From: Candidatus Parcubacteria bacterium | GTDB lineage: Bacteria > Patescibacteriota > Patescibacteriia > Patescibacteriales > UBA12075 | Length of the DNA: 64,000 bases | Direction: 5' to 3' | NCBI GenBank assembly: GCA_963814275.1 | Contig: CAWFCE010000001.1 | Location: 259,307 to 323,306, forward strand | Shown: one piece after another, positions 38,135 through 47,036 of the stretch | Layout: the number at the start of each line of letters is the position of its first letter | Position numbering within the stretch: the first letter of the stretch is position 1 | Notes under the pieces: generated by a model | What the model was told of the DNA's origin: nothing | The model's database searches: none | Seen by the model: only the letters and a program-made list of their open reading frames with translations | Program-made: the position numbers and the translations under genes

Positions 38135-38213
38135 GGATAGATGTTATTAAGTTCGGAAAGTATGTAATCTGTGGAGCGGCGATAAACGTCCCTAATGTTA
38201 GGGGCGTTTTTTT
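38135..38213 (+). repeat. Conserved 43-nt module plus terminator, copy A
   Basis: ggatagatgttattaagttcggaaagtatgtaatctgtggagc (38135-38177), then hairpin cgtcccta-atgt-taggggcg followed by ttttttt. Confidence 0.8.
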
Positions 38214-38327
38214 ACCTGAATTGGACGTTCGAACCGAATTTATATTTTTCATATTGCTTTTATTTGTAATATATGCTAAAAAATAATTATTCTTTAAAAC
38301 TTAATATAGATCAAAGGAGGTAATTTC

Positions 38328-38606
38328 ATGGTAGATAAAAAAATCCAGCAAGAAAAACTTCATCCCTTGGTAAACGGAGTTCATTTGGCGGCAACCACCA
38401 TGGCTGATATGGGAATTGAAATTCAGGCAGGTCTTATAATGAGTGTTGAGGACTTGCCTGAGGATTTGCAAGATCTTCCTTGGGTAAAAAAAGTTCAAAA
38501 AGCTTACTCAAATTTGAAAAAAGGCGTTGACCAAACTGCTGTTCTTTATTCACTTTTTGAAGAAGGTAAGAATAATAGTGTTTTGCCTGAAGGATACCTA
38601 ATTTAA
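38328..38606 (+). CDS. Hypothetical protein
   Basis: 92 aa with a strong SD (AAAGGAGGT). Confidence 0.45.
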   Translation: MVDKKIQQEKLHPLVNGVHLAATTMADMGIEIQAGLIMSVEDLPEDLQDLPWVKKVQKAYSNLKKGVDQTAVLYSLFEEGKNNSVLPEGYLI

Positions 38607-38712
38607 GCAAGGTTGAAATTTTTTTTATTAAGTTTTTTTAACTGGTCATGGCTAAGGGAAGGATCCTTGCACCGTGGCTTCAACTCGAACCTTGGGCTAA
38701 TAGGAGGATGTT

Positions 38713-39414
38713 ATGTCAAAAGGTTTATTCTTTAAGGATTTGGTTAAGGGAATTATTGCTTCTGAAGCAATAGACGAAAAAGGTGAATTAGATTTTTTGG
38801 TTACTTTTAAAACCTGGGCTTCTGAGGAAGGTCATATTATTTGGTTAAAAAATGAATTCGAGCCGTGGTTTAAAGAGATCAAGAAGATTCCAGGTGTTCT
38901 GAATGCAGGAGGTTTAAAAGTTGAAAAAGCATCCGGCAAATCAAAAATGGGCTCTATTGAGCTTGGAATAAAGATCGCTGGCGGTTTTAGAATGACACCT
39001 GACGCTAATACGATGGTAGCGGGAATTATAGTATCGGCAATCAGAAAATCAGCCGCAAAAACAATTCATAGCTACTATGGCCCAAAGTTTAATTATCAGA
39101 AGCCATTATTCTACGCAATCCACAATCATTATTATGAAGCAACGCCTTGTTGCAGTGATTGGGATAAGGGTAATCGCAGATTAAAACGATTGCAGTCTAA
39201 TAACTGGAAACTAAAACATTTAATTGATGACTGCGGAGCAATGTTAAAAGATTTTGTAATTCTAGATAAAAATAAAGTAATCAGAATTATTTTACGTTGG
39301 AAGCAAAACGCTTCAGATGAGAGCCGTGGCACCCTTGAAAAAGTTATAAAAGCTTATTTTAGGGGAATGGATTTTGAGCTAATGAGTTGGAAATGCCTAC
39401 CATTGAAAGATTGA
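38713..39414 (+). CDS. Hypothetical protein
   Basis: 233 aa with SD TAGGAGGA. A terminator lies at about 39447-39482. No motif was recognised. Confidence 0.5.
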   Translation: MSKGLFFKDLVKGIIASEAIDEKGELDFLVTFKTWASEEGHIIWLKNEFEPWFKEIKKIPGVLNAGGLKVEKASGKSKMGSIELGIKIAGGFRMTPDANTMVAGIIVSAIRKSAAKTIHSYYGPKFNYQKPLFYAIHNHYYEATPCCSDWDKGNRRLKRLQSNNWKLKHLIDDCGAMLKDFVILDKNKVIRIILRWKQNASDESRGTLEKVIKAYFRGMDFELMSWKCLPLKD

Positions 39415-39600
39415 ATCATTGGACATTAAGCACTTTTGCAATAAATAAAATCAGACTTCTCATCAGGAGTCTGGATTTTTTATACAAAACAGGTTCTAAC
39501 TTCCTCCGGTGCTCGGAGCTTAATTGACAAAAACTAAAACATATGTTATAGTTTTTTGTTATTATTTATTCACAATCAATTAACCATCAAGGAGGAAATT

Positions 39601-39906
39601 ATGGGAAAGCACAAGTATATCTACTGGCGTCCTGATTTAGATCGGAACGATGAAGGTGAAATGTTTGCGAATGTACATCTTTTGATCGGTTATAATCAGG
39701 GTAGTATAACCGATTTACAAAAAATGGCGGATGAAATTCGTGAGACCTTTCCACAGGCGACTTATGACGAGATTTACGCGAGCAAAGTAACTCACTCTAT
39801 TCGCGTTAAGGAGTTCACAATTGTAACCTGGGGCGGACACATTCCGCAGGGTGAATATCCGGGCTGGGATCAGATTAAAAACCCGGTAATTGAGTACAGC
39901 TGGTAA
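39601..39906 (+). CDS. Hypothetical protein
   Basis: 101 aa from MGKHKY, with SD AAGGAGGA 7 nt upstream. A terminator follows. Confidence 0.5.
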   Translation: MGKHKYIYWRPDLDRNDEGEMFANVHLLIGYNQGSITDLQKMADEIRETFPQATYDEIYASKVTHSIRVKEFTIVTWGGHIPQGEYPGWDQIKNPVIEYSW

Positions 39907-44415: not shown

Positions 44416-44427
44416 GGAGGAAAAGAC

Positions 44428-45741
44428 ATGAAAGACCCAATCGTAGTAACAGAAGGAAAAACAAAGGTAATCTACAAGTCGGAAGACATGCCTGGAATCG
44501 TGCTTATCACGAGCAAAGATGACATCACCAAGAATGATGATCCGTCCGCGACCAAGGTCATGGAGAACAAGGCGGTTCATGCGACCGCAACCACCTGTGC
44601 TGTTTTTTCTCTTTTGAAAGAGGCCGGGATTCCGGTCGCCTTCAAAAAACAGATTTCGGCAACAGAGTTTCTGGCGCCGGAGTGCAAGATGATTCCGCTC
44701 GAAGTGGTCATAAGGCGCTATGCCGTCGGCAGTTATCTCAAACGCTATCCCAATCTCGGCAAGAAGAAAGGCGAATCACCGCACCGTTTTCACCGTCTGG
44801 TCTTCGAACTTTTTTTGAAAACTACCGGAGGTAAAATAATCACCAAGGACGGTGATGTACGCGGAGTTACGCCAACCGAGGAATCGACCGGAAGGCCGAT
44901 TGATGATCCGTTCATTTCCGACCACGACAATGAGGTTTGGGATTTGAAACACCCGAAGTTCCCCGGCTGGGATGAGAAGTCCAACCTTGCTTGTCCGGTA
45001 TTCCGGAGAAACATTCTTCCGGAAAGCGTGAATGTCGCGATAATCGAGGAAATCACACGCAAAACATTCCTCGTTCTCGAGGGCGCATGGTCAAGGCTCG
45101 GTTGCCGTCTTATCGATTTCAAGATCGAGTTCGGCATCGACGCTAACGGCAACCTTCTTGTCGCTGATGTTATCGATAACGACAGTTGGCGTCTGCGGAC
45201 AAGCGACTGGAAAGAACTTTCCAAGCAACTTTTCCGCGATAATTCCGAGATGGGAGACATCGCAAACAAGTATGCGCTGGTGGCAAATCTGGTCAACAGA
45301 GTAACTATTCCGAAACAGGCAATCGTCCTCTGGCGTGGATCAGACAGCGATAAGTTCCCCGAAATCCCGGCTCTGGCTGGCGTAGAAAAGGTCGAGATTA
45401 CGATCTCCGGCCACAAATCACCGGCCAAAGCACTCGACAGGCTGGAAACTGTCCAGGCTGAATTTCCTGAAAAAGGTGTGATCGTAACAGTCATCGGTAT
45501 GAGCAACGGTCTTACTCCCACCCTGTCCGCGCGCACCTGCTGGCCTGTAATCTCGGTTCCAGCAACCGCCAAGGACAGACCACACGATGTTTGGAGTAAT
45601 CTCGAAGCACCTTCGAACGTTCCTTTGGCCACCGTCCTTTCGCCGAAAAACGCAGTTCTCGCCAGTCTGAACATTCTGGCACAAAGCAACCCGATCGCTT
45701 ACATGCATCGTCAGTATGCGATTGAGGAGTTGGATAAATAG
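44428..45741 (+). CDS. Bifunctional SAICAR synthetase / class II PurE-like AIR carboxylase (PAICS-type fusion)
   Basis: The N-terminal domain (EGKTKVIY..., MIPLEVVIRRYAVGSYLKRYPN, DFKIEFGID...VADVIDNDSWRL) resembles eukaryote-type PurC. The C-terminal domain (RGSDSD, SGHKSP, GMSNGLTPTLSA..WPVISVP, DVWSNLEAPSNVPLATVLSP) resembles the AIRc domain of animal PAICS rather than class I PurE (AGGAAHLPG). Confidence 0.8.
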   Translation: MKDPIVVTEGKTKVIYKSEDMPGIVLITSKDDITKNDDPSATKVMENKAVHATATTCAVFSLLKEAGIPVAFKKQISATEFLAPECKMIPLEVVIRRYAVGSYLKRYPNLGKKKGESPHRFHRLVFELFLKTTGGKIITKDGDVRGVTPTEESTGRPIDDPFISDHDNEVWDLKHPKFPGWDEKSNLACPVFRRNILPESVNVAIIEEITRKTFLVLEGAWSRLGCRLIDFKIEFGIDANGNLLVADVIDNDSWRLRTSDWKELSKQLFRDNSEMGDIANKYALVANLVNRVTIPKQAIVLWRGSDSDKFPEIPALAGVEKVEITISGHKSPAKALDRLETVQAEFPEKGVIVTVIGMSNGLTPTLSARTCWPVISVPATAKDRPHDVWSNLEAPSNVPLATVLSPKNAVLASLNILAQSNPIAYMHRQYAIEELDK

Positions 45742-46127
45742 CCAATACAAACAGCTGAATTGACTTTCTGCATAATCCGTAACATTTTAACAGGGCCACT
45801 TTGCATAAGCAGAGTGGTCCTTTTCTTTTTGGCAATAGTCTTCCATTTGCTTAAAAAATTTGCACTATCTCCCGAGTCAGCAAAGGCATATAGAAATTCT
45901 CGCTATTCTCAGCCAAACTGGTGCGGACTTCGTCCAAGTAGTGGAGCAAAATAAAACTCCGACTTTATGTAGGAGTTTTATTTTGCTTCTGTGGATACGA
46001 AAGAACCTGCTTTTTGGAAAGACCCTTGTGCCCCTTCGGATTCTATTTTAAAAGTTTATAATTCCAGACTTGTCCCGTCATTAAACATAATAGAAAAAGG
46101 ACCAAGCAGCGGCTGGGTCCTTTTTTG

Positions 46128-46523
46128 TTAAATAAATCTAATGCTTTGTTTTATATTTTCGGTATTTTTTTCAGGAAAAGCATAATCCTTTTTTCTCTTT
46201 TGGTCGTACACAGCGATTTTATAAAACGTATAATTATCCCTGTCCAGAATGACTATATGAGTTCGGTACAACTCGCCATTGACGACCGGAGTCAGAATGA
46301 TCCTCTGCGGATCTTCGACTTGGGAAATTGCCTGATCGATCGTTTCGGCCAATCGATTTAATGTTTTGGCCGGTATTCCCGGCTCATCGTATGCGATCGT
46401 ATAATCATCCGATCGAGTATCCCAGCAATCGCGGGAGCTGTTTTTCCCGTAATTATTATGGCCGGCACAGCCGGCGGTGAGTAAGATAAACAAGCCGCAC
46501 ATCGCAACATACCTCGGATTCAT
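46128..46523 (-). CDS. Putative lipoprotein
   Basis: MNPRYVAMCGLFILLTAGC carries a lipobox (LTAGC). SD AAGGAGG lies upstream. Confidence 0.5.
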   Translation of the reverse strand: MNPRYVAMCGLFILLTAGCAGHNNYGKNSSRDCWDTRSDDYTIAYDEPGIPAKTLNRLAETIDQAISQVEDPQRIILTPVVNGELYRTHIVILDRDNYTFYKIAVYDQKRKKDYAFPEKNTENIKQSIRFI

Positions 46524-46956
46524 GAAAAGCTCCTCCTTTCTCAAAGAACATTGCATGATTATGCCCGACTGAATCGGTAAAGGTATTAATATTCAGTCTG
46601 AGAACGCACTGGTTATATAAAGGTATTATGGCCGATTAATATTAGAATATTCATAAATTGAGAATAAGCGAGGCTCATATACATTAATATTACCAGGTTA
46701 TCGGCCCAAGGTCAGGTTGTCGAAAATGAAGCCGGCGATGAGGACGATGGGGGGAGCAAATTGATTCATAATGGCTAAAATTATGATAAATAATTACTTG
46801 TCTATTATATTTTAACCCCTAAAAGTGTAAACCCCCTTGCTGCAATGTTAACAAACCTTTGACTGCTGGCTTGTTAGAGTAAATGAATAATAAAAATATG
46901 GTTTAATTTTTATCTAAGTTTGAGATTCATTTTTTCGGCGCTAACTTTTACCACTC

Positions 46957-47036
46957 GGTAAAGTTGAATTAGTTCGGAAAACAGGTAATCTGCGGCGCAA
47001 AAATAAAACTACAGAGAAATCTCTGTAGTTTTTTTT
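46957..47036 (+). repeat. Conserved module plus terminator, copy C (diverged)
   Basis: ggtaaagttgaattagttcggaaaacaggtaatctgcggcgc shares AGTTCGGAAA and GTAATCTG.GG.GC with copies A and B. It is followed by hairpin ctacagag-aaat-ctctgtag and tttttttt. Confidence 0.7.

Follow-up and report, generated by a model that had tools for sequence, protein, structure and literature searches.

The subject of this study is a short repeated module that lies downstream of a tRNA gene in the genome of a Candidatus Parcubacteria bacterium (contig CAWFCE010000001.1, positions 259,307 to 323,306). This 64-kb stretch, analyzed as a whole, is called the window; coordinates are positions in the whole window, and related loci compared with it carry L numbers. 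A first-pass annotation had described three direct copies of a 43-nt module, each followed by a terminator hairpin, and the description holds. The core pattern has three matches in the window, all on the plus strand, against 0.06 expected from shuffled sequences. Copies A (38135-38177) and B (40007-40049) are identical at 41 of 43 positions, and copy C (46956-46998), with 70% identity, retains AGTTCGGAAA-N4-GTAATCTG-N-GG-N-GC. A hairpin with a T-run follows every copy 6-7 nt on (38184-38209, 40057-40087 and 47005-47032), and the stems of the three hairpins are mutually unrelated. The earlier view of a conserved 5' part combined with a freely varying 3' hairpin was also correct.

The conserved element is longer than 43 nt. 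When positions are counted relative to the G of GTTCGG, the alignment is gapless from about -50 or -70 (-85 in some copies) to +27; beyond +27 the copies diverge completely, and their flanks are unrelated hairpins. The strings TTTTACC and TTTTGTAC, previously noticed on both sides of the copies, do occur there. Neither is a target-site duplication: TTTTACC, on the upstream side, corresponds in reverse complement to conserved Val-Lys codons, and the downstream string is the end of the terminator T-run. Likewise, GGATAGAT is the reverse complement of Ile-Tyr-Pro codons.

The tRNA gene upstream of the modules is tRNA-Asn(GTT). It is split by a group I intron, the only match returned by Rfam, and is missed by ARAGORN, which called no tRNA. 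The intron, of about 560 nt, sits between the second and the third anticodon bases and holds an open reading frame (ORF) that resembles an HNH endonuclease (35546-35854; weak match to Pfam HNH). The tRNA gene ends in a terminator of its own, and the hairpin of module A is homologous to it: the local alignment score of the two terminators, 30, was reached by none of 500 shuffles. Similarity between the tRNA flank and the module flanks is likewise found in L011 (one of 500 shuffles). The stems of the two window terminators (36120-36154 and 38184-38216) differ by compensatory changes, AAACTTACCTAATTTTAGGGTAAGTTTTTTT versus AAACGTCCCTAATGTTAGGGGCGTTTTTTT.

Coding identity of the module

On the minus strand, a reading frame is found in all three window copies if codons are read as the reverse complement of plus-strand positions (27,26,25), (24,23,22) and so on. 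The frame reads [C/G/R]S.DY[LI][FL]SEL..[IL]Y..V…, then stop, and has no start codon. The search for further copies that the first-pass annotation had recommended was successful, and the related metagenomic loci number about 25. Species-representative genomes, scanned for the pattern, contributed three copies (one of them on a contig of Candidatus Doudnabacteria); a degenerate version of the pattern, applied to metagenome contigs, added about 20; and a nucleotide hidden Markov model (HMM) detected additional diverged copies within the related loci. Scans of viral contigs for the module produced no match. In about 20 copies from different contigs the frame is open and conserved, reading [CGS]S[PAT]DY[LI]FSEL..[IV]Y..VK.S..., then stop. 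The differences between L009 and L018 fall mainly at positions with a periodicity of three (11 of 18), and L023 encodes the same residues with other codons (TCT/TCC, TAT/TAC, TCA/TCC, GAG/GAA). Synonymous recoding in L023 indicates that the constraint acts on protein.

Most copies have an in-frame stop 1-11 codons upstream (one codon in L009), and no start codon is conserved. Hence, the frame represents just the C-terminal part of a gene, and starts immediately behind the hairpin. A complete minus-strand gene that encodes a small protein (about 30-45 aa), for instance a type I toxin with an antisense RNA, is very improbable: besides the lack of a conserved start and the stop upstream, no Shine-Dalgarno sequence is found, a terminator lies directly upstream, and the peptide is collinear with the end of recombinases of more than 300 aa, as described below. 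The idea of a complete gene gains some credit from the ORFs of 36-62 aa annotated at such sites, some of which have an ATG (P0001, P0002, P0004), and from the copies of the FLOH contigs (FLOH01000477 and FLOH01000246), in which the region before the ORF can pair with the 5' end of the ORF.

The peptide was searched with a word index, with an exhaustive profile search of 1.8 billion representatives, and with iterated searches on extensions. The exhaustive profile search returned short ORFs only, some of them with an N-terminal extension (...VFSEL....G.L...AKEGF..LFKR....SGSADYLFSEL...). Iterated searches led to proteins of up to 338 aa with the PF07508 (Recombinase) domain, which is carried by P0039 and P0060; P0059 is named site-specific DNA recombinase. 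The L025 gene (8824-9903, with a frameshift near 9900) encodes PF00239 (Resolvase) and PF07508, and the L027 gene encodes PF00239 and belongs to an element with TraG/TrwB-like, ArdC-like and methylase genes. The presence of PF00239 and PF07508 in the longer proteins identifies the peptide as the tail of a large serine recombinase (LSR). The modules are therefore the C-terminal tail of an LSR family with Resolvase and Recombinase domains. An HMM made from intact C-termini alone detects exactly the three modules in a six-frame translation of the window; the matches start at the SG|S junction (HMM position 17 in the case of module A), and the preceding AKEGF..LFKR segment is absent.

The coding nature of the minus strand bears on the first hypothesis of the first-pass annotation, a family of small RNAs (sRNAs) with a shared 5' seed. 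Such an RNA, or a cis-acting one, would be transcribed from the plus strand with a length of about 70 nt, and would consist of an unstructured conserved 5' seed and a variable intrinsic terminator. A gapless alignment, substitutions with a periodicity of three and synonymous recoding are, however, the marks of protein coding on the other strand. No conserved structure was detected by RNAalifold on either strand, which lends no support to covariation either; no Rfam match is found at the modules, at the gathering score or at E values up to 10; and neither -10/-35 boxes nor a sigma-70 promoter are conserved, even though neighbouring genes have canonical TGnTATAAT. In favour of an RNA, about 80% of the copies have a hairpin and a T-run within 15 nt on the plus strand, and the unit looks insulated, as many copies are preceded by the terminator of the upstream gene. 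Against it, the terminator is missing in L009, L012b, L013 and L019, where a promoter or a ribosome-binding site adjoins the copy. A further point for an RNA is that third codon positions in the core are more conserved than a decaying pseudogene would need. Altogether, we consider an sRNA quite improbable.

Additional candidates were tried and discarded. A minus-strand frame with APQIT[YC]FPN had appeared to be coding because of its variable third positions; it contains no ORF, its conservation stops, and it is in part an artefact of the search pattern. Small plus-strand ORFs ending in ...LIFT.. or ...SSENR before the stop are inconsistent between copies. A minus-strand gene starting at a conserved ATG (AAAATTAGTATG) would yield ORFs of 10-24 aa only, and this ATG is an internal Met of the recombinase tail. 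Promoter or antitermination signals of the sigma-70, extracytoplasmic function (ECF), T7-like or RfaH-ops-like types were rejected for want of hexamers conserved at a constant position. Three RNA structures were considered, namely a P1 helix (ATAGAT/ATCTGT), a minihelix resembling a tRNA and a hammerhead core; their pairs are broken in most copies, and the RNAalifold consensus is empty. Finally, a silent-cassette or shufflon system would call for a full-length gene whose tail varies; none exists, and the tail is that of the recombinase.

Split recombinase genes and candidate attachment sites

Several ORFs of the family lose their family likeness after ...SG(S) and continue as sequence typical of an antisense tRNA. 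In L025, an LSR ORF (10001-10486) overlaps tRNA-Asn (10423-10497) on the opposite strand, with the junction ...RPRTSGS|EGGVRT.... The missing tail, GSADYLFSELVSIYGSVKVGMEKLSKLSFMTTVQSS and a stop, is found at ~3841-3950, 6.6 kb off, immediately after a terminator hairpin. The two recombinase fragments thus delimit an entire 6.6-kb element. Phage-like genes lie between them, and both junctions (attL and attR) have CCGAGCC, the 3' end of that tRNA. In L026, the recombinase ORF (2125-3120) runs into antisense tRNA-Ser(CGA) (3002-3089), an observation which indicates that different lineages of the family target different tRNAs. The junction is uninterrupted inside the gene in L018, L027 and L028. 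The split genes, together with the intact ones, place attP within the recombinase ORF, about 34 codons before the stop, and attB at the tRNA's 3' end. This is the arrangement of self-splitting integrases, with an att site internal to the ORF and two fragments at the flanks, as found in L025 and also in L026.

The modules are associated with tRNA-Asn: in five independent contexts (the window, L014, L011, L007, and L003, which is annotated as Candidatus Doudnabacteria) they lie downstream of this gene and in the same orientation. The window and L014 share one gene order, in which rpoD, tRNA-Asn, ORF 36282-36734 (a homologue of it in L014) and a module succeed one another; RpoD of L014 is 82% identical to that of the window. 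With rpoD of a contig assigned to Candidatus Doudnabacteria, the window gene has 77% identity. Synteny with L014 covers dnaG (31499-33355), rpoD and tRNA-Asn.

The distance between GTTCG(G/A)A and G.GC is 23 nt in all modules compared, versus 18 nt in six tRNA-Asn genes. In a serine integrase system, the motif bound by the zinc-ribbon domain (ZD) was shown to be present in both attP and attB, and to lie 5 bp nearer the centre in attB (Rutherford et al. 2013, PMC3783163). The difference of 5 nt between module and tRNA is an exact match to the published shift, and the 5-bp rule explains why the core looks like a tRNA. The GTTCGGAA / GTTCGAA box is presumably the motif bound by the recombinase. 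The assignment of half-sites and the exact crossover position are likewise to be taken as provisional; the stretch common to attP and attB is GGAGC in the window and CCGAGCC in L025.

Our interpretation, which we consider very probable, is that the modules are hybrid sites of the attR type, every one of them the trace of a mobile element integrated by an LSR. In the proposed reaction, attP of the element, located inside the LSR gene, would recombine with attB at the 3' end of tRNA-Asn. The N-terminal 90% of the recombinase would stay beside the tRNA (attL), reading into the tRNA in antisense, and the last ~30-35 codons would go to the far end, there to be joined to the former tRNA flank, which comprises an A-rich stretch and a terminator hairpin with its T-run. 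Module and variable hairpin would make up attR, composed of a P arm (the recombinase tail), the crossover and a B' arm (the former tRNA terminator). The contrast between a conserved 5' part and a variable 3' part would arise because a P arm derived from the element is joined to a B' arm derived from the target. The 27-nt core would double as coding sequence (the reverse complement of ...S-x-D-Y-L-F-S-E-L) and as the P half-site bound by the recombinase, a double role that would explain its near-invariance. GTTCGGAA would be the ZD motif in attP, with the T-loop GTTCGAA as its counterpart in attB, nearer to the crossover by 5 bp. The window relics probably arose by the same reaction as L025, and three of them in a row would be the distal ends of three acquired DNA blocks. 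The modules have the composition expected of a hybrid site, with an element-derived P half and a target-derived B' half. A cognate recombinase with PF00239 and PF07508 is found in related loci, not inside the window.

The first-pass annotation had also considered that the copies might be recombination sites that mark module boundaries, of the dif-like or pdif-like type. The first part of this proposal stands and the choice of family does not, since the sites are of the LSR attR type. Copies do delimit gene blocks, and a core of 27-28 nt has the size of dif. Yet sites for Xer or another tyrosine recombinase are practically negligible as an explanation. An 11-6-11 division of the core yields two arms, AGTTCGGAAAA and ATCTGGGGAGC, that agree at only 4 of 11 positions when one is inverted; no dyad symmetry of this kind is present in the 28 nt; and what is conserved codes for the tail of a serine recombinase. 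As for a location at the replication terminus, the cumulative GC skew climbs monotonically from one end of the window to the other and shows no turn of the kind expected at a terminus.

Several observations weigh against the interpretation of the modules as attR-type sites. (i). A tblastn search found no N-terminal part of the recombinase anywhere in the window, and tRNA-Asn is followed by a terminator, with no truncated recombinase gene. The window relics therefore have no attL partner and cannot be paired with a complete element. (ii). Serial integration of autonomous elements predicts a recombinase gene, not a terminator, after each internal module. Neither recombinase genes after modules nor a truncated gene beside the tRNA are seen in the window, L014, L011, L007 or L003. 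As the array lacks recombinase genes, an extra step is needed: either deletion or cassettes without recombinase. (iii). In the window, the likeness of core and tRNA is limited to GTTCG and GGAGC, and no clear symmetry relates the P' and B' half-sites to P. (iv). Block 3 has a host-like GC content and carries purine-synthesis genes. (v). The activity of the LSR on these sites is putative.

Table 1. Features of the tRNA-Asn locus and of the three modules; half-site and crossover labels denote candidate assignments.
Feature	Position	Strand	Remarks
tRNA-Asn(GTT) exon 1, through second anticodon base	35474..35507	+	same as 5' part of intact tRNA-Asn genes of L014 and L011
Group I intron, anticodon loop	35508..36069	+	Rfam RF00028, 96 bits over 35775-36061
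tRNA-Asn exon 2, candidate B half-site of attB	36070..36110	+	T-loop GTTCGAA 36087-36093; 3' end GGAGC 36104-36108
Terminator hairpin and T-run right after tRNA-Asn	36120..36154	+	homologous to module A hairpin
Gene block 1, tRNA to module A	36111..38082		ORFs 36282-36734 and 37082-37762, both +, no known family; GC 0.41
Module A, relic: last 31 codons and stop of LSR gene	38083..38178	-	RSTDYILSELNNIYPQVKDCTVKLAGLAYVK, then stop; HMM of intact C-termini E 1.6e-6; no start codon; in-frame stop 11 codons upstream
Module A core: candidate P half-site (GTTCGGAA box, GTAATCTG box) and crossover region	38150..38177	+	GGAGC at 38173-38177
Module A B'-type flank: terminator hairpin and T-run	38184..38216	+	
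Gene block 2	38217..39954		ORFs 38328-38606, 38713-39414 and 39556-39906, all +, no known family; GC 0.36
Module B, recombinase tail relic	39955..40050	-	CSTDYIFSELNNIYPLVQNNIEILNNIIYLK, then stop; HMM E 7.2e-9; in-frame stop 6 codons upstream
Module B core: candidate P half-site and GGAGC	40022..40049	+	
Module B B'-type flank: hairpin and T-run	40057..40093	+	
Gene block 3	40094..46909		YGGT-like ORF (-), GH3-like ORF, purB, PurC/E-like fusion, small lipoprotein-like ORF (-)
Module C, recombinase tail relic	46910..46999	-	CAADYLFSELIQLYRVVKVSAEKMNLKLR, then stop; HMM E 3.9e-9; in-frame stop 3 codons upstream
Module C core: candidate P half-site and GGCGC	46971..46998	+	
Module C B'-type flank: bidirectional hairpin and T-run	47005..47040	+	

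Gene blocks, arrays and other repeats

The coordinates of tRNA, modules and gene blocks are listed in Table 1. The GC content of blocks 1 and 2 is low (0.36-0.41, compared with 0.47 overall), in line with acquired DNA. The three small genes reported between modules A and B in the first-pass annotation are plus-strand ORFs without known family, and block 2 has its own terminator (39930-39952). The YggT-like gene reported between modules B and C does match YGGT; the other gene names of block 3 are taken from the first-pass annotation. A strong promoter, TTGCCA-16-(TG)TATAAT (47041-47068), follows the flank of module C and serves the next gene.

Other traits of this region deserve mention. The ORF at 37082-37762 contains a 168-nt tandem duplication (37321-37656, 86% identical), and its product has three repeats of ~56 aa and a signal-peptide-like N-terminus. 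Just upstream of module A (37980-38045, plus-strand reading) there is a weak, inverted and degenerate tail-like match, IGSLTFVMSGLHRIKLKVKITL, with an HMM E value of 0.15; it is possibly a fourth recombinase-tail relic, and may also be due to chance. RpoD (33493-34761) has a lysine-rich repeat region at its N-terminus that resembles histone H1 (HC2).

Outside the window, the cargo of related loci is made of accessory genes (Fic/DOC, NUDIX, HEPN/MNT and restriction-modification genes). On the FLOH contigs, at least 13 copies follow one another in the same orientation at intervals of 576-1760 nt. The cassettes between them are each equipped with a TGnTATAAT promoter, one or several small ORFs, and a terminator, and the repeat units end sharply at about -33 and +96. 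The existence of such arrays led us to consider an integron-like refinement of the attR interpretation in which circular cassettes devoid of recombinase are inserted beside tRNA-Asn by a recombinase acting in trans. The circular form would consist of a recombinase-tail half-site and a terminator resembling the tRNA flank. Because every cassette would bring its own terminator, a usable target would be regenerated, and cassettes would accumulate with the newest next to the tRNA.

This refinement fits the FLOH arrays, with their sharp unit ends, and the homologies between tRNA and module flanks detected in the window and in L011. It would also suit the fact that a terminator and not a recombinase gene follows the tRNA in five contexts. 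Against it, circular or empty-site forms were not seen; the right half-site of the intact gene, which is coding, is unlike terminators; and, at the sensitivity used, no recombinase gene was found in the window or in the arrays of L011 and L017. In addition, known serine integrases require a directionality factor before attL or attR can serve as a target (PMC3783163). We therefore regard insertion of cassettes in trans as possible, albeit rather unlikely. An alternative explanation for the arrays is that the recombinase side is regularly deleted.

On the far side of the hairpin, many FLOH units present an imperfect copy of the core in inverted orientation (ACCGCGGTTACTGTTTCCGAAC), whose spacing of 17 nt is of the attB type, a trait particular to that genome. 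The inverted partner is significant in FLOH units only (p~0.005 for L011a; p>0.05 for other copies), and a reading of these units as attC-like sites or as miniature inverted-repeat transposable elements was rejected as it is not general. Units with an inverted core are found at L011 4975-5085 and, in similar form, in L008, L012, L021 and L017; the repeat ends exactly at ...CCGAAC. A hairpin and an inverted box without recognisable canonical core are present at L017 3560-3620, 7750-7805 and 9490-9545. After some terminators of the FLOH contigs there are further fragments that resemble a tRNA T-arm (L011 1890-1930 and 6930-6980; L017 1920-1960) and paired GGTTCGAAC/GTTAGAAC boxes around GGGGCGGGAC. 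Diverged core variants also occur; in one of them, CAGTCCGAACATAGTCCGTCCCTCGGAGC (L017 3530-3560 and 9450-9485), the last 10 nt are the same as those of the local tRNA-Asn 3' end.

With regard to the hosts, P0010, an ORF that contains the tail, comes from a metagenome-assembled genome (MAG) labelled 'archaeon'. The module-bearing MAGs L001 and L002 are labelled 'uncultured Gammaproteobacteria', yet they have 29-31% GC and a gene content like that of the Candidate Phyla Radiation (CPR).

The window contains additional repeats. About 16 head-to-tail copies of a 28-nt unit are found at 19733-20180. Runs of a 7-nt unit (CACATAA/CAGATAA/CACGCAA-like) occupy four intergenic places (2682-2725, 7684-7741, 8961-9032 and 27712-27797), near which lie longer dispersed repeats (3888-3991 / 26966-27069; 9068-9128 / 27018-27078). 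A dispersed family with three copies (13425-13635, 16932-17020 and 25765-25855) contains an inverted pair, GGGGCGAAGCAATCCCGGGGCGCG ... TTCCTCGCGCCCCGGGATTGCTTCG, and is GC-rich relative to its surroundings.

Comparison with known systems

The attachment sites of known LSRs (phiC31, Bxb1 and the A118/LI integrase, in which attP x attB yields attL and attR) are the closest match in several respects: the recombinases likewise combine Resolvase and Recombinase domains with a long C-terminal part containing a coiled coil, and the sites are short, give hybrid products that are half element-derived and half target-derived, and have a motif 5 bp closer to the centre in attB (PMC3783163). Unlike in those systems, attP lies here in the reading frame of the recombinase itself, so that integration would truncate the enzyme; the target is the region from the T-loop to the 3' end of a tRNA gene; and solo attR-like relics form arrays.

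An att site within the integrase ORF is known in the SSV-type 'suicidal' integrases (SSV1, pTN3, pT26-2), whose gene is broken into two fragments, one at either flank of the element, when the latter enters a tRNA gene; orphan int fragments beside tRNA-like sequence persist as footprints, and self-splitting integrases are stated to be exclusive to archaea and to tyrosine recombinases (PMC8371274). The arrangement is the same here, with an ORF-internal att site, a tRNA target and split-gene footprints. However, SSV-type enzymes are tyrosine recombinases with archaeal hosts, whereas the present family consists of serine recombinases, and at least some of its hosts are bacterial. The att core also differs: it is a long stretch identical to the tRNA in the SSV type, and is limited here to 5-10 nt of tRNA identity, with removal of the last ~34 residues. 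Given its serine-recombinase domains and the bacterial sigma-70 factor encoded in the window, the family appears to work like the SSV type without being a member of it. Literature searches with module sequence strings and contig accessions returned no match, and no report of a bacterial or serine-type self-splitting integrase was found in a literature whose coverage was incomplete, so that a prior description is possible.

An attP located within an ORF has a further precedent in the integration-dependent immunity of mycobacteriophages, reportedly described by Broussard and coworkers in 2013. The attP site is said to lie inside the repressor gene and the targets to be tRNA genes; integration reportedly removes the ~30 C-terminal residues, a degradation tag being lost, and gives rise to episomal and integrated forms of the protein. 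If so, the truncated gene is a repressor in that case and the recombinase itself in ours.

Integrons (attI/attC) are similar in that small co-oriented gene blocks with accessory cargo are separated by relics of a repeated site and enter at a fixed chromosomal point. They employ, in contrast, a tyrosine recombinase and a folded, single-stranded attC with R''/L''-L'/R' symmetry, and their cassettes differ from those described here, which carry their own promoters. The modules lack the internal dyad and the RYYYAAC...GTTRRRY ends of attC, the order of GTT and AAC being reversed, and an inverted core partner exists in the FLOH subfamily only. In tRNA islands of the Islander type, which depend on tyrosine integrases, a repeat downstream of the tRNA likewise marks the far end of the acquired DNA (PMC4383910). 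That repeat is a displaced 3' fragment of the tRNA; here, only a T-loop-like box and the last 5-10 nt are common, and the rest is recombinase coding sequence.

An unlikely speculation, even more tentative than the insertion of cassettes in trans, is that tRNA-Asn is the entry point of an integron-like gene capture driven by LSRs in CPR-type bacteria with small genomes. Autonomous members would then be the first bacterial, serine-type counterpart of 'suicidal' integrases, and truncation might act as a directionality switch.

If the attR interpretation is correct, the ~11 kb from tRNA-Asn to module C are bounded by integration scars that provide a map of acquired DNA. The acquired stretch would include three orphan genes and possibly the purB/purC-E block, which bears on the question of which metabolic genes of a reduced genome are native. 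The LSR family is characterized by an attP in its own gene, a spacing rule of 5 bp and, probably, the use of the tRNA T-loop, which is universally conserved, as one of its binding motifs. A bacterial serine-type analogue, if true, would mean that the self-splitting arrangement evolved twice, and would provide new, small, tRNA-directed integrases of possible use in genome engineering.

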